Shown one piece after another: positions 21,177 through 41,595 of a stretch of 64,000 nucleotides of DNA (positions are counted from its first letter, which is position 1; the number at the start of each line of letters is the position of its first letter). Made by a program: the position numbers and the translations under genes. The stretch is from an uncultured Halanaerobiales bacterium (lineage in GTDB: Bacteria > Bacillota > Halanaerobiia > Halanaerobiales > M55B127): NCBI GenBank assembly GCA_913055675.1, contig CAJXKY010000004.1:7178-71177 (forward strand). Direction: 5' to 3'. Under the pieces are notes generated by a model. That model was not told where the DNA came from. It saw only the letters and a program-made list of their open reading frames with translations, and searched no databases.

Positions 21177-23108
21177 ATGAATAAAAAAATTCTATATGCA
21201 ATAATAATACTAACCCTTATTATTTCTTTATTTGGAATCAGGGGTCGGTTTATGGTGGAACAATCAAATAAAAATGTAGAACTGGCTTTTGATTATAATT
21301 CTCTTTCAGATATGAGAGAAGAATATAATAACCAGGCTCTCACTTTAGATGATTTAAAAGAGTATGGAGTTAACTCCATAGCAATTTCTCCCCTTAATAT
21401 AAAGAACTTAATTCGAGAAGGGAAAGTGGTTAAACTTGAAAAAAGTGAAATAACAAAAAGGATCTTATTATCAGATAATGAAGAGGCCTTCTGGCAGGAG
21501 TTTCCTGAACATGAAAAAAGCGCCTTTTTAATATTTCAAGAACAAAATAATTTTTATAATAACCTAAAAGCATATCAAAAAGAACTTGATTTAGAGTTTA
21601 AAGAAGTTAATGGTAAAAATATTGTTTTCTTTCCTTACTGGAAAGAAGATTTTTTAAAAATTGATGTTGGTTTTGAAAAAGGTTTAATAGAGGAGATTAA
21701 TGACAAAGGATTTAATGTAGTATTTAGATTTGAAAATAATGATATTAATGATCTTAATTATAAACTTTTAGAGGGAATAAATGAGGAAACAACTGTAGTC
21801 TTTAGCGGTCAGGAGATATTAGGCTTTCCTGATAATATAGAAAAAACTACAGAACTCATCCAAGAGAAAAACAATACTTTTGGATTCATTGAAGCCATAA
21901 TTGCTGTTCAAAAAGGAGAAGATAAGTTAGCAGCTAATTTAGACTATGATATTGTTCGAGTCCATAGTATTACTCAGGATGAGATGAATATATACTCACA
22001 AACCAAAATAGTAAATAGGTATATGCGGGCGATTCGTGAAAGGAACATCCGTTTTTTATATTTACGCCCTATCATTAAAGAAAACAAGGATTTTGCTGCT
22101 GCTAAGTCAATAAACAAAGAATATATTCAAAGCTTAAATAATGAATTAGTCTCAGCGGGATATAATATCAAACGTGCTGAGCCATTTAAACAATTTTCTA
22201 ACAATAGTATTTTCTTGATTTTTAGTGCGCTTGGTAGTCTTGTTGGCGGTATATTGCTTTTAATTGAATTATTTAAAATAAGAGAAGACTTAATTAAATA
22301 TATTTTAACTGTGATTGGTATAATCGGGATATTTATGACTTATTATATATTAGATATAACAATATTTAGGGCTGGTCTTGCCTTGGGAAGTAGTATCGTG
22401 TTTCCTAGTTTAGCAATAATCACCCAGCTTTTAAAAAGGAACAGTAAAAAATCAATTCTAAATTATTTTAAAGCTGCTTTAATTACTATCGCTGGAGCTG
22501 GATATGTTGTGACAGCCTTAGCTGATATAAGTTATCTTACAAAAATAAATCAATTTAGAGGCGTTAAATTAGCATTTTTAATGCCTTTATTGATAGTTAC
22601 TTTTTATTATTTTATGGAATATATAGTAAGAGAAAAAAACACAACCATAAAACAAAAGTTCAATGAAATTTTAGAAATTAATCTTAAAGTTAAACACTTA
22701 GTAATCTTAGCTATTGTTGCCCTGGCTGGTATTTACTATATTTTAAGAACGGGAAATTTTCCAATTCTTGATATTCCCGCCATCGAAGAAAAGTTCAGAG
22801 TATTATTAGAAGAGATCCTTTATGTTAGACCCAGATTCAAAGAATTTTTAATTGGACATCCGACCTTTATAGTTGCACTTTATTTCTTTAAAAATATAAA
22901 GAACAATTATAGTTTGTTTTTCTTGAGTCTCTTGGCAGTTATTGGGCAGTTGAATATAATTAACTCTTTTGCTCATATTCATACTCCATTATTAATTTCA
23001 CTTCTAAGAACAGTGCATGGTTTATGGATCGGACTTCTTTTAGGTTTGGCTGCTGTGTTAGTGATAAGATATCTAATTAATTTAACTCAAAACCAAAGGG
23101 TGAATTAA
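21177..23108 (+). CDS. Polytopic membrane protein (DUF5693-like) associated with csaB
   Basis: 643 aa. N-terminal TM segment, soluble domain of roughly 320 aa, then multiple C-terminal TM helices. Abuts csaB. Family name recalled, not searched. Confidence 0.6.
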   Translation: MNKKILYAIIILTLIISLFGIRGRFMVEQSNKNVELAFDYNSLSDMREEYNNQALTLDDLKEYGVNSIAISPLNIKNLIREGKVVKLEKSEITKRILLSDNEEAFWQEFPEHEKSAFLIFQEQNNFYNNLKAYQKELDLEFKEVNGKNIVFFPYWKEDFLKIDVGFEKGLIEEINDKGFNVVFRFENNDINDLNYKLLEGINEETTVVFSGQEILGFPDNIEKTTELIQEKNNTFGFIEAIIAVQKGEDKLAANLDYDIVRVHSITQDEMNIYSQTKIVNRYMRAIRERNIRFLYLRPIIKENKDFAAAKSINKEYIQSLNNELVSAGYNIKRAEPFKQFSNNSIFLIFSALGSLVGGILLLIELFKIREDLIKYILTVIGIIGIFMTYYILDITIFRAGLALGSSIVFPSLAIITQLLKRNSKKSILNYFKAALITIAGAGYVVTALADISYLTKINQFRGVKLAFLMPLLIVTFYYFMEYIVREKNTTIKQKFNEILEINLKVKHLVILAIVALAGIYYILRTGNFPILDIPAIEEKFRVLLEEILYVRPRFKEFLIGHPTFIVALYFFKNIKNNYSLFFLSLLAVIGQLNIINSFAHIHTPLLISLLRTVHGLWIGLLLGLAAVLVIRYLINLTQNQRVN

Positions 23109-24206
23109 ATGAAGCGTATTTTGGTTTCGGGGTATTTCGGGTTTAACAACCTTGGTGATGAAGCTATCCTAAATAGTATGATTCAAATGATCAAGGAATT
23201 AGTTCCTGATGCAAAAATCATCGTATTATCCAATTCACCTGAAAGTACGAAAGTTAAGTATAATACTGAATCAATCTATCGTTATGATATATTTAGGATA
23301 ATGTCAGAGATGAAAAGAAGTGAAATCTTTATTAGTGGAGGTGGAAGCCTGCTGCAAGACGTTACAAGTTTGCGGTCAGTTCCATATTATCTAGGTCTAA
23401 TATTTTTAGCACTAATTTTTGAGATGAAAACTATATTTTTTGCTCAAGGAGTAGGTCCTGTTAAAAACAAAGTTTTTCGTTTTTTGATAGAAAAAGTTTT
23501 AAATAGAGTTGATTATTTATCAGTAAGAGATAAGAAATCAAAAACATTTTTAGAAGAGATCGGAATAAAAAAGAATAAAATTAATTGTATAGATGATCCT
23601 GTATTTGCTCTAAATTTATCTAATTCTAAGTTAGATAAAAAAGTAAAAAAAGATGATGAAATAAAAAATATAGGGGTTTCGGTCCGAAATTGGTATCAGA
23701 ATAGTTATCTTGACTCTCTAGCCGAATTTTTAAATATATTGGGTAAGAAAAATAATATATCAATTACGATAATTCCCTTTCATCAGGGAAAAGATATTGA
23801 TATTAGTAAAAAGTTACAGGGGATGTTAGAAGTTGATTCCCGGCTTAGAAGTTATACTGATAATTTAGATGAGGTCAATAATTTTTATAAAAAGCTTGAT
23901 TTGTTTATAGGTGTAAGATTACATTCTTTAATATTTTCAGCAGTAAATAAGATTCCTTTTATAGGGATAAGTTATGATCCCAAAACTGATAGTTTGCTTG
24001 AAGAAATGGGCTATCAAGATAAAGTTACTACAGAAAATGTAACAGCTGAAAAGCTGCAAAGTTCCTATCATAAAATTATAAATCAAGAAGAAGAAATAAA
24101 AGAAAAAATAACTAGGATTGTTAGGAAAAAGGGCAAAAATGTAAAAGAATCTTTAGCCCTATTAATAACAGATTTGAAAGGTGAAAAAGTTGAAAGAAAA
24201 GACTAA
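23109..24206 (+). CDS. csaB: Polysaccharide pyruvyl transferase CsaB
   Basis: 365 aa. MKRILVSGYFGFNNLGDEAIL, ISGGGSLLQDVTS and GVRLHSLIF are typical of CsaB. Confidence 0.8.
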   Translation: MKRILVSGYFGFNNLGDEAILNSMIQMIKELVPDAKIIVLSNSPESTKVKYNTESIYRYDIFRIMSEMKRSEIFISGGGSLLQDVTSLRSVPYYLGLIFLALIFEMKTIFFAQGVGPVKNKVFRFLIEKVLNRVDYLSVRDKKSKTFLEEIGIKKNKINCIDDPVFALNLSNSKLDKKVKKDDEIKNIGVSVRNWYQNSYLDSLAEFLNILGKKNNISITIIPFHQGKDIDISKKLQGMLEVDSRLRSYTDNLDEVNNFYKKLDLFIGVRLHSLIFSAVNKIPFIGISYDPKTDSLLEEMGYQDKVTTENVTAEKLQSSYHKIINQEEEIKEKITRIVRKKGKNVKESLALLITDLKGEKVERKD

Positions 24207-24921
24207 AATTCTCACCCTCAATATTGATAATATTACAATGGATAAGTTAATTGACAAATTACTTAGTGATCTTGAAACTGAGACTAAAAATCTAATATTT
24301 ACTCCCAATTCCGAAATAGTTGTTCGGGCTTATGATAAGCCTCAATTTGCAAGGATCTTAAACTCAGCAGATTATTTAGTACCGGACGGAGCTGGTTTGC
24401 TACTGGCAGCTAAAATTCTTGGTGAACCTCTACAAGAAAGAGTTGCCGGCTATGATTTGATGAGAAATTTACTGAAAAGAATTTCTGATAAAGACTATTC
24501 GGTCTATTTTTTAGGAGGAAAACCAGGTATAATAGACTTAGCAGTAAAAAATGTAAGAAAAGAGTTGCCTGAGATTAATATGGCTGGTTTTCATCATGGA
24601 TATCTTGATAGAGATAATAAAAAAGAAATAATTAGTGAGATCAATAGAATAAACCCTGATTTACTTTTTGTAGGGATGGGGGTTCCTTTACAGGAAGAGT
24701 TTTTTAACAATAATTTTGATGATTTAAACATAAAACTAGGTTTAGCAGTTGGGGGCAGTTTTGATGTTTTGGCAGGCCAAACAGAACGAGCACCCTTATG
24801 GATGCAGAAAATGTATCTAGAATGGTTTTATCGCTTACTCCAAGAACCGAAAAGGATTAAGAGAATGTTGGCTATACCGCGCTTTTTAATGTTGGTTTTT
24901 AAAGAAAAGTTTGGATTATAA
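24181..24921 (+). CDS. WecB/TagA/CpsF family glycosyltransferase
   Basis: 246 aa; start 24181 (GTG) or 24190 (TTG). FTPNSEIVV, LVPDGAGLLLAAK, GMGVPLQEEF and WFYRLLQEPKR are family motifs. Confidence 0.8.
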   Translation: MKKLKEKTKILTLNIDNITMDKLIDKLLSDLETETKNLIFTPNSEIVVRAYDKPQFARILNSADYLVPDGAGLLLAAKILGEPLQERVAGYDLMRNLLKRISDKDYSVYFLGGKPGIIDLAVKNVRKELPEINMAGFHHGYLDRDNKKEIISEINRINPDLLFVGMGVPLQEEFFNNNFDDLNIKLGLAVGGSFDVLAGQTERAPLWMQKMYLEWFYRLLQEPKRIKRMLAIPRFLMLVFKEKFGL

Positions 24922-32684: not shown

Positions 32685-34514
32685 ATGAGTGAATATATTG
32701 AAGAACAAATTAAACAAATACCAGATAAACCGGGCGTTTATCTAATGAAAGATAGTTTCGGGGAAATAATATATGTAGGGAAGGCCCGTTCTTTAAAAAA
32801 ACGGGTCCGTTCCTATTTCCGAAAAGGCAACCATAGCTATAAGACTGCTATTATGGTTGATGATATTGATGATTTTGATTATATAGTAACTGATACAGAA
32901 ATGGAGTCCTTTATCTTAGAGGCTAATTTAATTAAAAAACACCAACCTCAATATAATATTAGGCTAAAAGATGATAAGACTTATCCTTTTATAAAAATAA
33001 CGACCTATGAAGATTTTCCCCGGATAAAAAAAACACGGGTTGTAAAAAATGATGGAAGTAAATATTTTGGCCCTTTTGCAGATGTAGGTGCGATCTATAA
33101 AACTATAAATATTTTAAAAGATCTCTTCAAATTAAGAAGTTGTAATTATGATATCAGTGAAGAAAAACAGTTGGAAAGGCCCTGTTTGAATTACTATATT
33201 GATAAATGTATGGCCCCTTGTGTAGGCAAGATAAGTAAAGAAGATTACCACCAGTTGATCGACCAGGTGGTTTTATTCTTATCAGGGCGTCAGAAGAACT
33301 TAATAGACAAAATAGAAGAAAAGATGAATACAGCAGCCGAAGAAGAGAACTTTGAAAAAGCAGCTCGCTACAGAGACGCAATTCAGGCTGTCGAAGAAAT
33401 TTCAAGGCAGCAAAAAGTAATGTCAGAAGATGACCAGGACCGTGATATTATTGCTATTAAAGAAGATGGTTCTTATTGTGTACAGCTATTATTAGTTAAA
33501 AACGGTAAACTTATCGGTCAAGAACATTATATATTAGAAGTACCCGAAGGGGAAGACCAAAGTGAAGTTATGTCTTCTTTTCTCCAACAATATTATGAAC
33601 AGGCTCCACAGCTTCCTGATGAAATCTTAATAAATACAGAAATAAATAACAGGGACATACTTGCTGATAGATTAAAACAGCTGAAAGGAAAAAAAGTTGC
33701 AATCAAAATTCCTTCACGCGGCAATAAAAAGAGATTAATTGAGATGGCATTGAAAAATGCAGAACAAAATCTAAAAAAAGATCAGATAAAACGGAAATAC
33801 GAAGCAAAAAGAACTGTGAAAGCAGTAGAAAAATTAAAGGAATATCTGGATTTAGATAAACCACCTCAATATATAGAAGGATTTGATATTTCAAATATCC
33901 AGGGTACTGATCCGGTTGCTTCGATGGTGGTTTTTAAAGATGGAAGAGCTGTTAAAAGTGAGTACAGGAGATTCAAAATCCAGCATGATGAAGGTCCTGA
34001 TGATTATGCAATGATGAGAGAGGTCGTTCATCGAAGATATAGAAGACTATTAGATGAAGAAAGACCTTTCCCCGATTTGATCTTAATTGATGGAGGGAAA
34101 GGGCAGTTAAATGCTGCTCAGGCCATTTTAACTGAATTAGGGATCGAAGAAAAAATTGAGATGGTTGGATTGGCCAAGAGAGAAGAAGAAATTTTTAAAG
34201 CAAATAAAGAAGATCCAATTATCCTTTCTAAAAATTCTAATGCTCTTCATTTACTACAGAGAGTTAGAGATGAAGCACATCGCTTTGCAGTTAACTATCA
34301 TCGGAAATTGAGATCTAGACGTATTTCCCATAGTATGTTGGAAAGAATTCCCGGCATAGGAACCGAAAAAAGAAAAGCATTGCTGCAGCACTTCAGTTCA
34401 CTTGCCAAAATTAGAACTGCAGATGTTAAAGAGCTAAAAGAAGTCAATGGTATAAGTGATAAATTAGCCCAAGAAATAAGTAAATATTTAGAGGAAAATA
34501 CTAGAAATATATAA
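32685..34514 (+). CDS. uvrC: Excinuclease ABC subunit C
   Basis: ATG at 32685 after AAAGGTGA (track GTG 32676 lies in the RBS). GIY-YIG (PGVYLMKD...IIYVGKA), UVR domain (FEKAARYRD), C-terminal HhH (IPGIGTEKRKALL). Confidence 0.95.
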   Translation: MSEYIEEQIKQIPDKPGVYLMKDSFGEIIYVGKARSLKKRVRSYFRKGNHSYKTAIMVDDIDDFDYIVTDTEMESFILEANLIKKHQPQYNIRLKDDKTYPFIKITTYEDFPRIKKTRVVKNDGSKYFGPFADVGAIYKTINILKDLFKLRSCNYDISEEKQLERPCLNYYIDKCMAPCVGKISKEDYHQLIDQVVLFLSGRQKNLIDKIEEKMNTAAEEENFEKAARYRDAIQAVEEISRQQKVMSEDDQDRDIIAIKEDGSYCVQLLLVKNGKLIGQEHYILEVPEGEDQSEVMSSFLQQYYEQAPQLPDEILINTEINNRDILADRLKQLKGKKVAIKIPSRGNKKRLIEMALKNAEQNLKKDQIKRKYEAKRTVKAVEKLKEYLDLDKPPQYIEGFDISNIQGTDPVASMVVFKDGRAVKSEYRRFKIQHDEGPDDYAMMREVVHRRYRRLLDEERPFPDLILIDGGKGQLNAAQAILTELGIEEKIEMVGLAKREEEIFKANKEDPIILSKNSNALHLLQRVRDEAHRFAVNYHRKLRSRRISHSMLERIPGIGTEKRKALLQHFSSLAKIRTADVKELKEVNGISDKLAQEISKYLEENTRNI

Positions 34515-34562
34515 AAACCCTGAAAAAAGTCAATTTTACTATTGACAATCAGGGTTTTTTAA
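34514..34562 (+). terminator. Rho-independent terminator after uvrC
   Basis: AAAAACCCTGA ... TCAGGGTTTTTT with an internal GTCAAT/ATTGAC sub-stem. The 3' half also carries a possible -35 TTGACA (34542-34547), with TATCAT at 34565-34570, for the next operon. Confidence 0.75.
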
Positions 34563-34572
34563 GTTATCATAA

Positions 34573-34590
34573 ATGTGAAATAAATCACAT
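34573..34590 (+). promoter_or_regulatory. Rex-like (TGTGA-N6-TCACA) palindromic operator upstream of the hydrogenase operon
   Basis: ATGTGAAATAAATCACAT matches Rex consensus TTGTGAA-N4-TTCACAA at 15 of 18 positions. Lies between the putative -10 and the RBS of the 34609 gene. Confidence 0.5.
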
Positions 34591-34608
34591 AAAAGGAGAA
34601 TAAAACTT

Positions 34609-34869
34609 ATGGTTGAGGTCAAAATATGTGTTGGAAGTAGTTGTCATTTAAAAGGTGCACCGGAAGTTGTAGAAAAGTTTAAGAGCCTAATTAAAGAAAA
34701 AGAACTAGAAGACAGTATTAATTTAAAAGCGAGTTTTTGTCAGAATAACTGTACTGCTGGTGTTAATATTACTATAGATGGTACAAAGATATCAAATGTA
34801 TCTGGTGATGATGTAGAAAAAATAATAGATCAAAAAATTTTAGGGGAGATTGTGAATGAAAATACTTGA
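34609..34869 (+). CDS. Thioredoxin-like [2Fe-2S] ferredoxin-domain protein (hfsA-like position)
   Basis: 86 aa, RBS AAAGGAG. Cys pattern C-x4-C ... C-x3-C (CVGSSC ... CQNNC), as in the NuoE/HydC fold. Confidence 0.7.
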   Translation: MVEVKICVGSSCHLKGAPEVVEKFKSLIKEKELEDSINLKASFCQNNCTAGVNITIDGTKISNVSGDDVEKIIDQKILGEIVNENT

Positions 34870-36565
34870 TGTAGTAAAGACAAGCTGTCAGGACTGTCAC
34901 CGCTGCTTAAGAAGTTGTGAAGTAGGAGCAATTGGTTTTGATGAACAGGCCTGGATAATAGAAGATAAATGTATATACTGTGGAACCTGTATGAGTGTAT
35001 GTCCACAGGACTCAAAAAAACCATATGACATGAAAGAAAATTTAATAGACTACATAGAAAGTGAGCAGGAAGTTATTGTGAGTTTAGCGCCCTCGTACTT
35101 AACAGCTTATCCTGAAATCGAGTGGTTTAATATCATAGGTACTTTAAGAGAATTAGGTGTTGATCTTATTACTGAGACAGCTCAAGCCGCAGAACTTGTA
35201 GCTGATAACTTTAATAAAATGATAAAAGGACGAGATAAAACCCTACTTTCAAGCTGCTGTCCTTCCATTATAAATTTAATTGAAAAACATTATCCTGAAA
35301 TGAGAGAATATCTGGCAGATATAGTTTCTCCCATGAATTTACATGCTTCTCTATTAAAAGAGAAGTATGGTGAAAATAGTAAGGTGGTTTTTATCGGTCC
35401 CTGTATAGCAAAAATGGATGAGATTTCTAATGATAGGACCGAATCAAAGGTAGATTCTGTTATCACTTTTAATCAGTTTAAAACATTATGTGAAGAGATG
35501 AAGATTAATCCTAAAGAATATTCGGATTATAGAATAGATGAAGGGTGTGGACAAATTGCTGGTACTTATCCCTTGGAAAAAGGAGCTGTAAAGGCTTCTA
35601 ACCTTTTAAAAGAATTTAAAGATACAGAAGTACTTTCAGCTAATGGGGTTAAGAGTTGCAAGAAAATATTAGAAGACTTAAAAAATGAAAAGTTAACTCC
35701 GCGGTTTATTGAATTAATGGCTTGTGAAGGAGGCTGTATTAACGGTCCAGGAATTGAAAGCTTTGATAGTACTATAAGTAAAGAGATTAAAGTAAATAGA
35801 TATGCTGACCAGAAAGAAGTTAAATACAATTCGAGAGATTTATCTCAATATATGAATGAAATATCCATAAATAGGAATTATAAGGATAGAAAAAAGGTAT
35901 ATGAAGAGCCTTCAGAAGAGGAAATAAGAGATATTTTAAAAGATATTGGGAAAGAAAAGCCAGAAGATGAAACCAATTGTGGAGGATGTGGTTATGATTC
36001 CTGTCGGGAAAAAGCAGTAGCAGTTTATCATGGATTAGCTCAAAAAAAGATGTGTATTCCCTATATGAAATCTAAGGCTGAATCACTTTCACATATTATT
36101 GTTGAATCTTCTCATAATGCTATTATAGTTGTTGATAAAAATATGATTATACAGGAGATAAACCCCGTTGCTAATCAGATGTTTGGAGATAAAGATTCAA
36201 TCTGGGATGGAAAAGAACTTTCACAATTTATTGATCCAAAATTATTTGAAAAAGTTTGGAGTACAAAAGAATCAATTGTCCATAAAAAGGTTGAATATGA
36301 TGAGTATGAACTAATTACTGAACAGACAATTTTTCCTATTGAAGAATACGGGGTTATTGTTGGCATATTTTCAGATATAACACAGCGAGAACAGCAGAAG
36401 AAAAGGGTTCAGGAGATGAAAGAACTAGCAGCAGAAAAAGCTGAGGATGTTGTTCATCAACAGATGAAAATAGTTCAGGAAATAGCCGGACTTTTAGGTG
36501 AAACAACTGTTGAAACAAAGACAGCTCTCCATGAGTTGACTGAACTAATGCAGGAGGAAAAGTAA
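34856..36565 (+). CDS. Sensory [FeFe]-hydrogenase-like protein with PAS domain (HydS / group C type)
   Basis: 569 aa. Two N-terminal 4Fe-4S motifs (CQDCHRCLRSC, CIYCGTCMSVCP). H-cluster motifs SSCCPSI, GPCIAKMDE and ELMACEGGCINGPG. Extra cluster C-x2-C-x4-C-x16-C (NCGGCGYDSC...KKMC). C-terminal PAS (NAIIVVDKNMIIQEINPVANQMFG...GIFSDITQRE). Confidence 0.85.
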   Translation: MKILDVVKTSCQDCHRCLRSCEVGAIGFDEQAWIIEDKCIYCGTCMSVCPQDSKKPYDMKENLIDYIESEQEVIVSLAPSYLTAYPEIEWFNIIGTLRELGVDLITETAQAAELVADNFNKMIKGRDKTLLSSCCPSIINLIEKHYPEMREYLADIVSPMNLHASLLKEKYGENSKVVFIGPCIAKMDEISNDRTESKVDSVITFNQFKTLCEEMKINPKEYSDYRIDEGCGQIAGTYPLEKGAVKASNLLKEFKDTEVLSANGVKSCKKILEDLKNEKLTPRFIELMACEGGCINGPGIESFDSTISKEIKVNRYADQKEVKYNSRDLSQYMNEISINRNYKDRKKVYEEPSEEEIRDILKDIGKEKPEDETNCGGCGYDSCREKAVAVYHGLAQKKMCIPYMKSKAESLSHIIVESSHNAIIVVDKNMIIQEINPVANQMFGDKDSIWDGKELSQFIDPKLFEKVWSTKESIVHKKVEYDEYELITEQTIFPIEEYGVIVGIFSDITQREQQKKRVQEMKELAAEKAEDVVHQQMKIVQEIAGLLGETTVETKTALHELTELMQEEK

Positions 36566-37716
36566 TGGATCTTGTAATAGATGAGTTTTATAAAAGTATT
36601 CCTAAAAAGGGGCAAGAAGTCTGTGGTGATAATGTAGAAATCATCAAAAACGATCAAGAAACAATAGTTGTTTTATCTGATGGATTAGGTAGTGGTATTA
36701 AAGCTAACATATTATCTACTTTAACATCTAAGATCACAGTTGGCTTAATAGATAAGCAATTACCATTAATTGAAATTATAGAAACCCTGATTGCAACCTT
36801 ACCGATCTGTGAAGTACGTGAAATTGCTTATTCTACTTTAGCAGTACTGAGATTATCTCAGGATGGAACAGCTCAAATAATCGAAATGGATACTCCTTCA
36901 GTATTTTTGGTAAGAGATAATCAAATTAAAGAGATTGAGATGCAAGAGCGTGAGTTGAGGGGGAAAACAATTCGAGAAGCTGAAATACAATTGAATAGAA
37001 GTGACAGAATATTTATGGTGAGTGATGGAGTTATCCATGCTGGGATCGGTGCTCTATTAGATTTCGGAATAGGTTGGCAGGGTTTTGCTAGACATGTTGA
37101 AGATGTGGTGGGGCGTTTTAATGATCTAAAAAACATGATAGAAAAATTAGTTGATATCTGTTTGGCATATTATTTAATGGAACCCGGTGATGATTTTACA
37201 GTTTTAGGTTTGAGTTTTAGAAAGAAACGTAAACTTACAATGTTAAGTGGGCCACCTCAAGATCCGAAAAAAGATGAGGAAGTAGTTTTTGAACTACTGG
37301 AAGGACCTGGTCAAAAGATTGTAAGTGGTGGCACAACTGCTCATATAGTAGCAAGGGAATTAAATCAAAAGGTTGAATCTACCTTTGATTATTATGATAA
37401 AGATGTTCCTCCCTTGATGAAAATAAAAGGGATGGATTTAGTGACAGAAGGGCTATTAACTTTAAATAAAGTAACTGACTATTTAGAAAAACACAAACAT
37501 GGTCAATTATATCCGAATGGCAAAGATGGGGCTTCTCGTTTGGTTAGAATGTTGCTTGCAAGTGATTATATAAAGATGATTGTAGGAAGGGCAATGAATG
37601 AATCACATCAGAGTTTGAATCTTCCTCTTGAATTAGGGATTAGAACTCAGGTAATGAACCGAATAGCAGGTTGTTTAAAAAAGCTTAATAAAGATGTTGA
37701 AATTATTTGGTATTAA
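36565..37716 (+). CDS. PP2C/SpoIIE-family serine phosphatase with unassigned C-terminal domain
   Basis: 383 aa, TAATG overlap with the upstream gene. EVCGDNVEII, VLSDGLGSGIKANILS and MVSDGVIHAG are PP2C metal-site motifs. Residues from about 220 to 383 match no family I recognise. Confidence 0.75.
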   Translation: MDLVIDEFYKSIPKKGQEVCGDNVEIIKNDQETIVVLSDGLGSGIKANILSTLTSKITVGLIDKQLPLIEIIETLIATLPICEVREIAYSTLAVLRLSQDGTAQIIEMDTPSVFLVRDNQIKEIEMQERELRGKTIREAEIQLNRSDRIFMVSDGVIHAGIGALLDFGIGWQGFARHVEDVVGRFNDLKNMIEKLVDICLAYYLMEPGDDFTVLGLSFRKKRKLTMLSGPPQDPKKDEEVVFELLEGPGQKIVSGGTTAHIVARELNQKVESTFDYYDKDVPPLMKIKGMDLVTEGLLTLNKVTDYLEKHKHGQLYPNGKDGASRLVRMLLASDYIKMIVGRAMNESHQSLNLPLELGIRTQVMNRIAGCLKKLNKDVEIIWY

Positions 37717-37733
37717 AAGAATGGAGTGATTAG

Positions 37734-37970
37734 ATGAAAAAGCTAACAGTGGAAGTTTGTATTGGAACTCCTTGTTATCTGATGGGGGCCAGGGAATTAA
37801 TAGATGATATGACAGAACTACAGAATGAATATGAGGATAAAATAAAATTTAAGACCTTACACTGTATCGAAGAACGATGTGAAAATGCACCTATAGTAAA
37901 AATTGATGGAGAAATATATGAAGAAATGACCCCAGATAAATTACGCGAAATAATATTAGAAAGAATATAA
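37734..37970 (+). CDS. Thioredoxin-like [2Fe-2S] ferredoxin-domain protein
   Basis: 78 aa, RBS GGAGTG. Cys pattern CIGTPC ... CIEERC. Paralogous in layout to the 34609 gene. Confidence 0.65.
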   Translation: MKKLTVEVCIGTPCYLMGARELIDDMTELQNEYEDKIKFKTLHCIEERCENAPIVKIDGEIYEEMTPDKLREIILERI

Positions 37971-37994
37971 GGTTTAAAGAAAGGAGGTCTTAAA

Positions 37995-39449
37995 ATGGCC
38001 GGAAATACAGTATCGGAAATAGTAAAAATAAAAAGAAAAATATATATAGAACTTGCTAAACAGGTATTAAATAATGAAATTGAAAACAAGATTTCTAAAA
38101 TACCTTTTAAGATTGCGAAAGAGGATGGTGAAAGGTATAGGTGTTGTGTCCATAAAGAAAGAGCTATTATTGAAGAGAGAATAAAACTTGTATTAGGATT
38201 TGATCCTAAATTACATAAAAATGAAAAACCTGTAGACCTTTTAAAAAAACGGGGTCAGGAAGATTGTTGTGATAATATAGTAAATGTAATTGAACTAGCT
38301 TGTGATAGTTGTCCAATAGATAAATATACAGTTACGGATTCCTGTCGGAATTGCGTTGCTCATAAATGTGTAAATACGTGCCCAGTTGATGCCATAGTTA
38401 CAATTCAAAACAAAGCATTTATTGATCAGAAAAAGTGTATTGAGTGTGGTAAATGTCGAGAGGTTTGTCCTTATGGGGCAATCCATGAGAACATAAGACC
38501 TTGTGTAAGGGCCTGTAGTGTTGATGCTTTGACTTCAAACAGTGAGCGCAAGGCTAAGATCGATTACGAAAAATGCGTGGACTGTGGTAGCTGTATTAGA
38601 GCCTGTCCTTTTGGAGCGATTAGTGATAGTACAGAAATAGTTAATGTATGTAGAACGATCCAAAAAGGTAAACGAAATATTACAGCTTTACTTGCTCCAT
38701 CTTTTGTTGGACAGTTCGGAGCAAAAGTGAAGCCAGAAATACTAAAAAGTGCTTTAAAAGAAATTGGTTTTGATGAAGTCATTGAAGTAGGTCTTGGAGC
38801 AGATTTAGTTGCGGTGGAAGAAAGCCAAGAATTAAAAGAAAAAATAATGGAAGATGATTTTTTACTTAGTTCCTGTTGTCCATCTTTTAAGAAAACAGTT
38901 CAAAAACATTTTGAGGAGTTAAAACCAAAAATTTCTAAAACAGTTTCTCCTATGGTAAAAATAGCAGAGAAAGTTAAAGAAGATACGGGGAATAAAACGG
39001 TATTTATCGGCCCTTGTATTTCAAAAAAGGCTGAATCTTGTAAATATGATTCCGTTGATCATGTTCTTACTTTTGAAGAATTGATGTGTATAATGGTAGC
39101 AGCAGAGATGAATCTAGCTTCTTATGAGAAAAAAGAAGGTATAAAAGATTCTTCTAGCCATGGGCGTCAATTTGCATTTAGTGGTGGACTTTCAAAAGTA
39201 ATGGAGGACCTTACAGAAAAGGAAATAAAGACAGTAAAGGGAAACGGATTGGATGAATGTCAGAAACTATTAAATGAAATAATGACAGGAGAAACAGAGA
39301 TAGACTTTATGGAAGGTATGGCCTGTCAGGGAGGTTGTGCCGGCGGTCCTGCAAATTTAAACAAATCTAAAGTTACAAAAAAACTGGTTGAACTCTTTTC
39401 TAACCAGGCTGAATATAAAAGAGCTGATCAAAATGAATACACAGCTTAA
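37995..39449 (+). CDS. [FeFe] hydrogenase-like protein with multiple N-terminal 4Fe-4S domains (group B-like)
   Basis: 484 aa, RBS AAAGGAGG. Ferredoxin motifs CRNCVAHKCVNTCP, CIECGKCREVCP and CVDCGSCIRACP. H-cluster motifs SSCCPSF, GPCISKKAE and MEGMACQGGCAGGPAN. Confidence 0.8.
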   Translation: MAGNTVSEIVKIKRKIYIELAKQVLNNEIENKISKIPFKIAKEDGERYRCCVHKERAIIEERIKLVLGFDPKLHKNEKPVDLLKKRGQEDCCDNIVNVIELACDSCPIDKYTVTDSCRNCVAHKCVNTCPVDAIVTIQNKAFIDQKKCIECGKCREVCPYGAIHENIRPCVRACSVDALTSNSERKAKIDYEKCVDCGSCIRACPFGAISDSTEIVNVCRTIQKGKRNITALLAPSFVGQFGAKVKPEILKSALKEIGFDEVIEVGLGADLVAVEESQELKEKIMEDDFLLSSCCPSFKKTVQKHFEELKPKISKTVSPMVKIAEKVKEDTGNKTVFIGPCISKKAESCKYDSVDHVLTFEELMCIMVAAEMNLASYEKKEGIKDSSSHGRQFAFSGGLSKVMEDLTEKEIKTVKGNGLDECQKLLNEIMTGETEIDFMEGMACQGGCAGGPANLNKSKVTKKLVELFSNQAEYKRADQNEYTA

Positions 39450-39747
39450 ACCCGTTAGTAAAATTGGCAAAATCATCTTTGTCTCAAATCGTTCTCTAAA
39501 TATATTAATATATTATAATGATGAAAATAAATTAAGCGAAATTTATAATAAACTAAACGATTTAGATCTAGAACAATTAAAATATGATAAGATAATGAAT
39601 ATTATAGATCAAAATTCCAATAAAAAAGTTTTACTTAATCAAAGTGACATAGAAATTATCAATCAGAATTCTGATGATGAGATAAATTTCTTTTCTCATG
39701 ATGTTAATAATGAAAATATGTATAAGTATATTTTTGCTTCTAATTAG
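39433..39747 (+). CDS. Hypothetical Asn/Asp/Ile-rich protein (uncertain gene)
   Basis: ATG at 39433 overlaps the hydrogenase stop by 17 nt. Weak RBS and no recognisable motif. Kept only because the frame stays open for 104 codons in AT-rich DNA. Confidence 0.3.
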   Translation: MNTQLKPVSKIGKIIFVSNRSLNILIYYNDENKLSEIYNKLNDLDLEQLKYDKIMNIIDQNSNKKVLLNQSDIEIINQNSDDEINFFSHDVNNENMYKYIFASN

Positions 39748-39902
39748 ATTGTTTAAAATTTAGGTAGGAGCCAGGAATTATTGGATTAAAAGTAGAATAG
39801 ATTCCTCATATCCCAACCAAAGGAGTGAGGTTTCTATGGAAGATATTATAACCAAAAATACAAAAGATATCAATAGTTTTTAAAAAGCTTCTTTAATACT
39901 TT

Positions 39903-39931
39903 TTGACAATTAACAAAAGTATATATATAAT
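39903..39931 (+). promoter_or_regulatory. Consensus sigma-A promoter for the ferredoxin gene
   Basis: TTGACA (39903-39908), exactly 17-nt spacer, TATAAT (39926-39931). Confidence 0.65.
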
Positions 39932-39982
39932 AATTTTAAAAGTAATAAACTAAATGATTTTTATACATATTCAAGGAGGTGA

Positions 39983-40162
<180 letters not shown>

Positions 40163-40185
40163 AAAACATAATTTTTATAATATAC

Positions 40186-40216
40186 AACCGGAGCGCATTT
40201 ATGTAGCTCCGGTTTT
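40186..40216 (+). terminator. Rho-independent terminator after the ferredoxin gene
   Basis: ACCGGAGC ... GCTCCGGT followed by TTTTAATT. Confidence 0.7.
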
Positions 40217-40362
40217 AATTATACCATCAAATTAATTATAATTTAATTAATTAAAATTTGATTTAATTCCATTAAATAATGAAGCAGGATTTAATTAATG
40301 TATAGAGAATAAATATATGTAATAGAGGTTAGTTATTTCTATAATCACTAAGGAGTTGATAT

Positions 40363-41595
40363 ATGTTGAGTTCAATTAAAGAAGTAGACCCTGAAATTGC
40401 AGAATTCATCGAAAAAGAGGAAGAAAGACAGGCCAAACATATTGAATTAATTGCATCTGAAAATTTTGTCAGCGAAGCAGTATTGGAGGCAGCCGGTTCG
40501 GTTTTAACCAACAAATATGCCGAAGGTTATCCTCATAAAAGATATTATGGTGGCTGTGAAGAAGTAGATAAGGTTGAAGACTTAGCTATTGAGAGGGCTA
40601 AAGAAATTTTTGGTGCCGAACATGCCAATGTTCAACCTCACTCTGGTTCTCAAGCTAATCAAGCAGTATATTTTGCCAAAGTACCTTTAGGTGATACTAT
40701 ATTAGCAATGGATTTAACTCATGGTGGACATCTTACTCATGGTAATCCAGTAAATATGTCAGGTAAATACTTTGACTTTGTCCATTATGGTGTGACAAAA
40801 AAGGAAGAAATAATCGATTATGATCAGGTAGAAAAACTCGCTAAAAAATATGAACCGACCTTAATTGTTGCTGGAGCTAGTGCTTATCCAAGAGTAATTA
40901 ATTTCAAAAGATTTAAACAGATTGCAGACCAAGTTGGTGCTTACTTAATGGTTGATATGGCTCATATCGCTGGTTTAGTTGCAGCAGGCTATCATCCTAA
41001 TCCAGTAGAATATGCTGATTTCGTGACCACTACGACCCATAAAACACTTAGAGGTACCAGGGGTGGAATGATTTTATGTAAAGAAGAATATGCTAAAGAT
41101 ATTGATAAAGCAATTTTCCCAGGTATTCAAGGTGGACCTTTAATGCATATTATTGCTGCTAAGGCAGTTGGATTTAAAGAGGTTATGACAGAAGACTTTA
41201 ATGAATATCAAAAACAAATCATAGATAATGCACAGGCCCTGGCAAAGAAATTGAAAAGTTTTGGTTTAAGACTAGTTTCCGGTGGTACAGATAACCATCT
41301 AATGTTAGTAGATTTAAATAACACTGATATTACGGGGAAAGAAGCTGAAAAAGTATTAAATAGTGTAGGAATTACCGTTAATAAGAATACAATCCCATTT
41401 GAAACTAGAAGTCCATTTGTTACCAGTGGAATTAGAATTGGAACCCCTGCGGTTACTACCCGTGGAATGAAGGAAAAAGAAATGGAATTAATTGGTGAAT
41501 ATATCTTTGAAGGTCTTAAAAATATAGATAATGAAAAAGCTTTAAGTGAACTACAAGAAAAGGTATATAAATTATCAGCTAAATTTTCTGGCTAA
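40363..41595 (+). CDS. glyA: Serine hydroxymethyltransferase
   Basis: 410 aa, [30 protein letters not shown] and PLP-lysine motif [14 protein letters not shown]. Confidence 0.95.

Follow-up and report, generated by a model that had tools for sequence, protein, structure and literature searches.

In a 64,000-nucleotide (nt) stretch of DNA from an uncultured Halanaerobiales bacterium, a halophilic anaerobe (GenBank assembly GCA_913055675.1, contig CAJXKY010000004.1, positions 7,178 to 71,177; hereafter the window), five tightly packed genes on the + strand form what is probably a Rex-controlled operon joining a putative H2 sensor with a fermentative hydrogenase. They encode, in order, an HfsA-like small thioredoxin-like [2Fe-2S] ferredoxin of 86 amino acids (aa; 34609–34869; PF01257), a HydS/HfsB-like putative sensory [FeFe] hydrogenase of 569 aa (34856–36565; Pfam and NCBIfam matches), an HfsC-like phosphatase of 383 aa (36565–37716; SpoIIE/PP2C match), a second small thioredoxin-like [2Fe-2S] ferredoxin of 78 aa (37734–37970; PF01257) and an HfsD-like group B (B1) [FeFe] hydrogenase of 484 aa (37995–39449; TIGR04105). 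Consecutive genes are separated by −14, −1, +17 and +24 nt, the second junction being GTAATGG, in which stop and start codons overlap as TAATG. A first-pass annotation had described five tightly coupled genes of hfs/HydS type at these coordinates. All of the open reading frames (ORFs) were recovered, Pfam/NCBIfam searches and inspection of the junctions matched its domain calls and the TAATG overlap, the motifs that it quoted (SSCCPS(I/F), GPC, GGC(I/A)(N/G)GP(G/A) and C-x2-C-x4-C-x16-C) are present in the sequences, and both gene order and domain architecture agree with a module of that type. Identical copies of the proteins occur on several metagenome contigs, and the nearest named relatives are found in Halanaerobiales metagenome-assembled genomes (MAGs; 82%) and in Halanaerobium (57%). 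Eighty related loci were retrieved with a profile of the phosphatase; individual loci are designated by L numbers.

The 569-aa protein matches Fer4 twice, Fe_hyd_lg_C/PF02906 (9.5e-56), the PF04060 FeS domain (residues 372–402) and PAS (415–516). Two [4Fe-4S] F-cluster motifs (aa 11–49; C11-x2-C-x2-C-x3-C and C39-x2-C-x2-C-x3-CP) precede an H-domain (aa 72–298) carrying the motifs SSCCPSI, FIGPC and GGCINGPG, an extra cluster of the form Cx2Cx4Cx16C is provided by C375, C378, C383 and C400, and a helical tail (aa ~520–569) follows the PAS domain. Two F-clusters, an H-domain, Cx2Cx4Cx16C and PAS constitute the M2f architecture described for putative sensory group C enzymes (PMC8163306, PMC13104023), and the protein is classed on this basis as a putative sensory [FeFe] hydrogenase of group C. 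HydDB class C3, "phosphatase-linked (putative)", is defined by an adjacent phosphatase gene as found here (PMC5037454), and the same label was given to the 569-aa protein from its architecture and its neighbor, following the class description.

To what extent the sensor departs from catalytic enzymes was assessed against 69 phosphatase-linked homologues from loci L005–L084, using the residue numbers of hydrogenase CpI and the roles in proton relay given in PMC8163306 and in references cited there. The H-cluster cysteines (135, 183, 290 and 294) and the four C-terminal cysteines are invariant in this set. The equivalent of M353 is Gly in 68 of the 69, that of S319 is Ala in the window protein and mostly Ala in the others, and that of E279 falls in an alignment gap in the window protein, so that the proton pathway of the sensor is predicted to be broken. 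C299 follows a different pattern. Its loss is part of the loss of the group A proton-transfer pathway ascribed to sensory hydrogenases, and its equivalent is described as not conserved in M2e/M2f sensors (PMC8163306). By contrast, Cys is retained at this position in the window sensor and in 46 of the 69 homologues (Ala in 12, Ser in 7); most phosphatase-linked sensors thus retain the relay cysteine, which differs from what TmHydS had suggested. The M497 equivalent is mostly Ser or Asn, with Met in only five homologues, the window sensor included. TmHydS, also of group C with M2f architecture, shares with the window sensor the two F-clusters, the H-domain, Cx2Cx4Cx16C, PAS and the replacement of M353 by Gly, but lacks the Cys at C299 and has Ser at M497 (PMC8163306). 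That the gene might be a degraded catalytic enzyme or pseudogene was rejected, because no cluster ligand varies and several independent metagenome contigs carry the gene intact.

The 484-aa hydrogenase presents the opposite case. The first-pass annotation had called it a second non-canonical hydrogenase deviating from catalytic enzymes at the same positions as the sensor. It contains several Fer4 matches and Fe_hyd_lg_C (4.5e-58), with an N-terminal poly-ferredoxin region of 18 conserved Cys (four predicted clusters) ahead of the H-domain, and it scores 533.4 bits against a cut-off of 450 with the curated NCBIfam model TIGR04105 "FeFe_hydrog_B1" (protein 7–457, model 3–461 of 462). Its motifs SSCCPSF, FIGPC and GGCAGGPA are those of its family: (S/T)SCCP(A/S)F, FIGPC (37/37) and GMACxGGCxGG(A/P) are invariant or nearly so in 37 homologues from related loci. 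The H-cluster ligands are C295, C341, C444 and C448, and alignment to the group A structure 8a6t placed C294, E276, E279 and S314 at the positions of CpI C299, E279, E282 and S319. These ligands and pathway residues are conserved in 35–37 of the 37 relatives. The whole proton-transfer relay is, by this alignment, kept in the group B enzyme, including the Ser and Glu that the sensor has lost, and the two proteins do not deviate alike. Group B enzymes are active ferredoxin-dependent H2 producers (PMC12578642), and in Thermoanaerobacterium it is chiefly the ferredoxin-linked HfsD that evolves H2 (PMC5707799, PMC11837493). On the combined grounds of the B1 score, the family-constant motifs, the complete relay and this literature, the 484-aa protein is read as a regular, catalytic member of group B that is non-canonical only if group A is taken as the standard; with a B1 match of this strength, what had been presented as an anomaly comes close to being a well-characterized catalytic type. 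Poly-ferredoxin N-terminus and H-domain are likewise combined in the group B enzymes Bacteroides HydM and HfsD and in CpIII (subgroup B2) (PMC12578642), but the Bacteroides genes stand alone whereas the window gene sits behind a sensor/phosphatase module.

Between these two hydrogenases lies the phosphatase. Its N-terminal catalytic domain (aa 1–220; 36565–37224, + strand) matches the SpoIIE/PP2C family PF07228 (3.6e-15, residues 30–218), and its metal motifs CGD22, D39-G-L-G-S-G, SD154-G and GD209-D210 are invariant in 63 homologues. The AlphaFold model of the full-length protein (pLDDT 88.7) was matched by Foldseek to SpoIIE, RsbU, RsbX and a Sphaerobacter PP2C (E about 1e-14 to 1e-11; 3pu9, 5mqh and 5ucg at about 1e-13), only PP2C structures being found. 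The remainder of the chain is a C-terminal domain of 163 residues (aa 221–383; 37225–37716, + strand), predicted to have an alpha/beta structure (pLDDT 91.5) and without a Pfam match at E ≤ 0.1. Searched alone, it gave no significant solved homologue; since its matches to flavodoxin-, MGS- and UbiX-like folds were weak (best E 5.6e-3, TM ≤ 0.44), no function was assigned to it. A search of 1.84 billion representatives returned 846 representative clusters. Among the best 150 matches, the full-length ones always carry the domain at the C-terminus of PP2C-family proteins of ~380–400 aa, the shorter ones look like gene fragments, and no other architecture was found. Residues GGT255–257, R264, PP282–283, G289, G296, LT298–299, G322, N345 and H348 are among those that are invariant, and D291, E295 and D321 are nearly so, which suggests a ligand or partner site. 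This private domain is the most unusual loose end of the window. The phosphatase substrate was still unidentified and the mechanism stated as unknown in the 2026 literature (PMC13277313), in line with the first-pass remark that substrate and output of such loci are poorly defined.

Both small proteins match the thioredoxin-like [2Fe-2S] family PF01257, the 78-aa one at 3.5e-12. The first has cysteines at 7, 12, 44 and 48, all four kept in 78 homologues, and its gene overlaps that of the sensor by 14 nt; the second, with cysteines at 9, 14, 44 and 49, is a paralogue of the first with 31% identity. A small [2Fe-2S] gene lies ahead of the sensor gene in most of the 80 loci; it was called as adjacent in 60, and in 53 of these it overlaps the sensor gene or lies ≤30 nt away. 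The second gene, between those of the phosphatase and the group B enzyme, is conserved in Halanaerobiales and occurs also in L037 and L052. Of 29 loci that have a group B gene, eight contain two small [2Fe-2S] genes, as do three of the 24 that lack one, a difference only suggestive of the second gene tracking the group B enzyme.

Most of the 80 loci encode the small [2Fe-2S] protein, the PAS hydrogenase and PP2C as a triplet. The loci span Bacillota, Fusobacteriota, Calditrichota, Atribacterota, Planctomycetota and Chloroflexota, and most exceptions are loci at contig ends or with no small [2Fe-2S] ORF called. In 62 of 70 loci the stop codon of the sensor gene overlaps the start codon of the phosphatase gene. 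An hfs-type order continuing with a group B hydrogenase, with or without an extra [2Fe-2S] gene, was seen in about 37 of the 80, and about a dozen loci adjoin bifurcating (HydABC-type) hydrogenases of the NuoE/NuoF/HydA kind. The association of the same triplet with either enzyme suggests that it is a portable regulatory module and not part of any one enzyme. The PP2C gene of Pirellulales, Planctomycetota and Anaerolineales MAGs is preceded by a short gene for the PAS domain and C-terminal helix only (~170–187 aa, aligning to sensor residues 405–568; L056:979–1542, L063:5894–6457, L079:929–1438 and L054:3–563), and a small [2Fe-2S] gene still precedes this short gene in L056, L063 and L079, where the contig reaches far enough. 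These loci are, from their gene content, a hydrogenase-less version of the module, and they point to PAS plus tail as the segment coupled to the phosphatase. The complete five-gene order was found, with different flanking genes, in a close MAG, in a 62% MAG, in Halanaerobium praevalens and in Halobacteroides halobius.

Transcriptional control was sought in the 94-nt spacer between uvrC and the first [2Fe-2S] gene. A predicted sigma-70-like promoter, TTGACA-17-TATCAT (34542–34570, + strand; 11/12 consensus matches), lies in this spacer, and the same TTGACA/−10 arrangement is present in relatives L087 and L088. Between its −10 box and the ribosome-binding site, over the expected transcription start, stands the perfect palindrome TGTGAAATAAATCACA (34574–34589, strand-neutral), a candidate operator by its match to the Rex-type motif TGTGA-N6-TCACA. 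It is the single such site in the 64 kb, versus 0.06 expected by chance, and it is kept at the same position in L087 (−34) and in L088 (−71, TGTGAAGTAATTCACA), the latter with different upstream genes. In 1.04 Mb of related loci, five of eight perfect sites lie ≤70 nt upstream of the first module gene. Rex, whose published consensus is TTGTGAANNNNTTCACAA, controls hydrogenase genes (PMC6391272). Rex-like 18-mers were found upstream of the module in 20 of 71 loci versus about one expected, a ~18-fold enrichment, and six of the 20 also encode rex (L013, L016, L022, L024, L031 and L037); by their sequence, Rex-type operators are thus common in front of the module. In H. halobius DSM 5150 (L090:9941–13368) rex and adhE directly follow the five-gene operon, and Rex-like boxes stand before the operon (TTGTTAAAAAAATAACAA) and before adhE (TGTGAATTAAAACACA).

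The window palindrome probably represents a Rex operator overlapping the transcription start. Alternatively, it could be an operator for a CRP/FNR-family protein, or a chance or structural inverted repeat, in which case the input would be something other than NADH/NAD+. TGTGA-N6-TCACA is also the CRP/FNR core, and the site, with its perfect and unique core, differs at three positions from the 18-mer TTGTGAANNNNTTCACAA. This alternative is nonetheless unlikely in view of the better Rex match found at the same place in L088 despite its different flanks, the arrangement in H. halobius, the enrichment upstream of the module, and the presence of rex in cis in five (L013, L016, L022, L024 and L031) of the nine loci with a core-palindrome site (≤1 mismatch) upstream. 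Presence of a Rex-type operator in the promoter means that the operon would not be cut off from transcriptional control.

The first-pass annotation had pointed out that neither a kinase nor a regulator is encoded nearby. Pfam context and tblastn, all but a few small ORFs being scanned, likewise revealed no gene for a Ser/Thr kinase, a STAS or anti-sigma protein, Rex or LysR within the 64 kb, and tblastn with representatives of the neighbor families recurrent in the 80 loci gave no relevant window match for kinase, Rex, AdhE or LysR. Regulators that the window does encode (an ECF sigma factor, sigma-54, CggR, TetR and WhiA) sit in unrelated housekeeping clusters. A partner-switching set (STAS substrate and anti-sigma kinase) was likewise absent from the 64 kb and from the 20 most recurrent neighbor clusters of the 80 loci, in which HATPase_c was found in four loci. 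The recurrent neighbors are adhE (15 loci), rex (11), LysR (6), an APH/RIO-like kinase directly upstream (5) and ldh (4); adhE and rex, both next to the operon in H. halobius, link the module to the ethanol/redox branch point. As few of the 80 loci carry a kinase or a regulator, absence of such genes in cis is the rule for this operon class: the observation stands and loses its character of an oddity. The APH/RIO-like phosphotransferase (about 250–290 aa; L058:4832–5701, L070:1840–2589, L075:4887–5636, L077:5058–5807 and L072:2–307) is encoded directly upstream of two [2Fe-2S] genes in Oscillospiraceae/Ruminococcus-type loci, often after adhE, and is likely the partner kinase in those lineages, as suggested by this gene order; no homologue was found in the window.

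Comparison with characterized systems places the locus within a known class. The hfsABCD operons of Thermoanaerobacterium saccharolyticum and T. thermosaccharolyticum have the same order of small protein, PAS hydrogenase HfsB, Ser phosphatase HfsC and ferredoxin-linked HfsD (PMC5707799, PMC11837493), a likeness that rests on published descriptions of those proteins; in the nearest Thermoanaerobacterales loci retrieved, L019 and L027, phosphatase identity to the window is 38–40%. The window has five genes instead of four, the extra [2Fe-2S] gene lying between phosphatase and hydrogenase, and whereas HfsA has been called poorly alignable (PMC11837493), its counterpart here is a clear thioredoxin-like [2Fe-2S] protein. 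Both share the question of the phosphatase target. The HydS-HydA2-AdhE cluster of Ruminococcus albus 7 likewise has a sensory PAS hydrogenase and a Ser/Thr phosphatase beside a ferredoxin-only hydrogenase and is H2-responsive (PMC6776011, PMC5707799). It comprises eight genes, among them adhE and, as cited in PMC5707799, an adjacent Ser/Thr kinase gene, both absent from the window; of the loci compared here, those of Ruminococcus/Oscillospiraceae type do include adhE and kinase-like (APH/RIO) genes. A functional analogy exists with HoxBC-HoxJ-HoxA of Cupriavidus necator, in which a slow hydrogenase acts through a PAS partner on a phosphorylation switch over hydrogenase expression (PMC5707799, PMC8163306), but there the [NiFe] site and the proteins are unrelated and a histidine kinase and response regulator take the place of the Ser/Thr phosphatase. 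The PP2C fold and metal ligands are common to the window phosphatase and to RsbP, RsbU and SpoIIE of Bacillus subtilis, which lack the private C-terminal alpha/beta domain, whereas the window phosphatase lacks a nearby STAS substrate or anti-sigma kinase. Taken together, PAS, helical linker and PP2C look like an RsbP divided between two polypeptides. Combined, these comparisons identify the locus as a normal Halanaerobiales copy of a known operon class, the oddities implied earlier (shared deviant positions in both enzymes and an orphan signaling module) being usual features of the two hydrogenase groups and of this operon class.

Downstream of the five genes, a small, fast-evolving, Asn/Asp-rich ORF of 104 aa (39433–39747, + strand) overlaps the hydrogenase stop by 17 nt. 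It was called as a gene on metagenome contigs and has the same position and length in L087 and L088, with 32% identity versus >80% for its neighbors; its second codon positions change least, and it gave a weak DUF3908 match below cut-off. Whether it belongs to the operon is uncertain. About 540 nt downstream of the module, and preceded by its own consensus promoter TTGACA-17-TATAAT (39903–39931, + strand; 12/12 matches), an ORF encodes a clostridial-type 2x[4Fe-4S] ferredoxin of 56 aa (39992–40162, + strand). The ferredoxin gene also follows the operon in the closest relative, L087, and its product is likely the electron donor to the group B hydrogenase. The first terminator-like feature downstream of the operon promoter is a hairpin with a U-tract at 40186–40222 (+ strand; −16.8 kcal/mol, z = −4.8, none of 200 shuffles folding as well). 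A scan of 34300–40500 for + strand terminators found none, the loop of this hairpin exceeding the loop limit of the scan, and for signals that could split the operon only weak promoter-like matches (9/12) and no + strand terminator before 40186 were seen.

Based on these data, the region is probably the Halanaerobiales form of the hfsABCD or R. albus HydS-type cluster, and would function as follows. When NADH/NAD+ rises, Rex would leave its operator and the operon would be transcribed. Reduced ferredoxin would be disposed of as H2 by the group B enzyme, working with ferredoxin and perhaps also with the second [2Fe-2S] protein. The sensor would bind H2 at its H-cluster, where the broken proton pathway (S319 to Ala, E279 absent, M353 to Gly) would make turnover slow, and the C-terminal [4Fe-4S] cluster would relay its redox state to the PAS domain and the helix that follows, which would control the bound PP2C. 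In the simplest logic the H2-free sensor would restrain the phosphatase and H2 would release it; the active PP2C would then dephosphorylate a Ser/Thr phosphoprotein encoded elsewhere, shifting flux between H2/acetate and ethanol/lactate. The sign of this switch was deduced from two published findings: ethanol yield and adhE expression go up on deletion of hfsA or hfsB, but only if both hfsC and hfsD are intact (PMC5707799), and in co-culture with an H2 consumer, where H2 is low, the R. albus cluster is expressed at a 111-fold lower level (PMC6776011).

Several points weigh against this scheme. The palindrome, with its three mismatches to the Rex 18-mer, fits the CRP/FNR core equally well, and rex is not in the window. 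Binding of H2, regulation of the phosphatase and contact between sensor and phosphatase are proposed by analogy and from gene coupling; co-transcription of the five genes is predicted from spacing and synteny; and the sign of the switch is drawn from Thermoanaerobacterium and Ruminococcus, which are distant organisms. In addition, the window sensor keeps the equivalents of both C299 and M497, which TmHydS has lost, and may therefore be more catalytic than that model sensor.

A different signal is conceivable, with the PAS hydrogenase using its F-clusters and dedicated [2Fe-2S] partner to report how reduced the ferredoxin or NAD(H) pool is, instead of H2 partial pressure, and the H-cluster serving only as a slow electron vent. 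The close adjacency of a small [2Fe-2S] gene to the sensor gene in most loci would fit, as would the co-occurrence of the module with redox-linked Rex and adhE and the Planctomycetota-type loci that keep [2Fe-2S], PAS-only and PP2C genes without an H-domain. However, the H-cluster ligands are invariant in the 69 homologues, TmHydS binds and slowly converts H2 (as cited in PMC8163306) and the R. albus cluster responds to the H2 level (PMC6776011), and we consider a pool sensor quite unlikely.

It is similarly doubtful that the C-terminal domain of the phosphatase provides a second sensory input, with GGT, N345, H348, D291, E295 and D321 forming a pocket for a small molecule or phospho-ligand. 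In that case the module would combine its H2 input with a metabolite signal and act post-translationally on the group B hydrogenase or AdhE, not via a transcription factor, which would explain why most loci have no kinase or regulator gene.

Finally, hfsABCD was first described as one multi-subunit hydrogenase, and the five products could form a single catalytic Hfs complex with the PAS hydrogenase and the phosphatase-like protein as structural or electron-transfer subunits, as their tight packing and synteny, the two small [2Fe-2S] proteins that could wire both H-domains together, the C299 and M497 equivalents of the sensor and the suggestion that HfsABC may be a functional hydrogenase without HfsD (PMC13277313) might indicate; this is very unlikely given that about half of the related loci have the triplet but no group B gene and others have it beside HydABC, that Bacteroides group B enzymes work alone (PMC12578642), that deletion of hfsB raises hydrogenase activity whereas deletion of the whole operon lowers it (PMC5707799), that PP2C catalytic residues needless for a purely structural subunit are invariant, and that PAS-only versions without an H-domain exist.

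Modules of the class favored here, a putative H2 sensor and phosphatase joined to a fermentative hydrogenase, are thought to set the split of electrons between H2 and ethanol or lactate in fermenters, a decision relevant to biofuel strains, rumen methane and gut gas. To this the present comparison adds modestly that sensor and phosphatase form a portable, translationally coupled unit, and that PAS plus tail is the part that travels with the phosphatase.

Housekeeping genes flank the module. Upstream are uvrB, uvrA and uvrC; downstream, the 104-aa ORF and the ferredoxin gene are followed by glyA and by genes for a HAD hydrolase, a radical SAM enzyme and a ROK kinase. More distant in the window are secA, prfB, cell-wall genes, sigma-54 and a cggR-gap-pgk-tpi-pgm-eno cluster. 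A cell-envelope cluster unrelated to the module, with genes for a 643-aa DUF5693 protein, a polysaccharide pyruvyl transferase and a WecG-type glycosyltransferase, occupies 21177–24921. An Rfam scan of the whole window gave no match at the gathering threshold.

Two observations were made on the related loci. In Thermoanaerobacter thermocopriae JCM 7501 (L027:3347–5087) three ORFs (83, 238 and 272 aa) stand in place of a single sensor gene upstream of an intact phosphatase gene, owing to a frameshift in a pseudogene or to an assembly error. In five of the 80 loci a gene for a TnpB/Cas12f-like protein of ~495–530 aa follows that of PP2C on the same strand (L023:9170–10800, L020:9199–10896, L033:9186–10799, L050:9413–10985 and L080:7110–8849), with a 4-nt overlap in L023. 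The protein gave profile matches to Cas12f (E 1.9e-8) and TnpB, and it looks nuclease-dead, because the RuvC-I Asp is replaced by an invariant Arg and the RuvC-II Glu by Gln in three of the five. Directly 3' of the gene lies a conserved non-coding element of 71–138 nt with boxes GTGCTTTTGCTGCCGCAC ... AAAGTGCAGCTATCT and compensatory changes in 9 of 19 predicted pairs, which belongs to no Rfam family and is absent elsewhere in the loci and from the window. From these features, the TnpB/Cas12f-like protein may be an RNA-guided regulator recruited as an output of the module.

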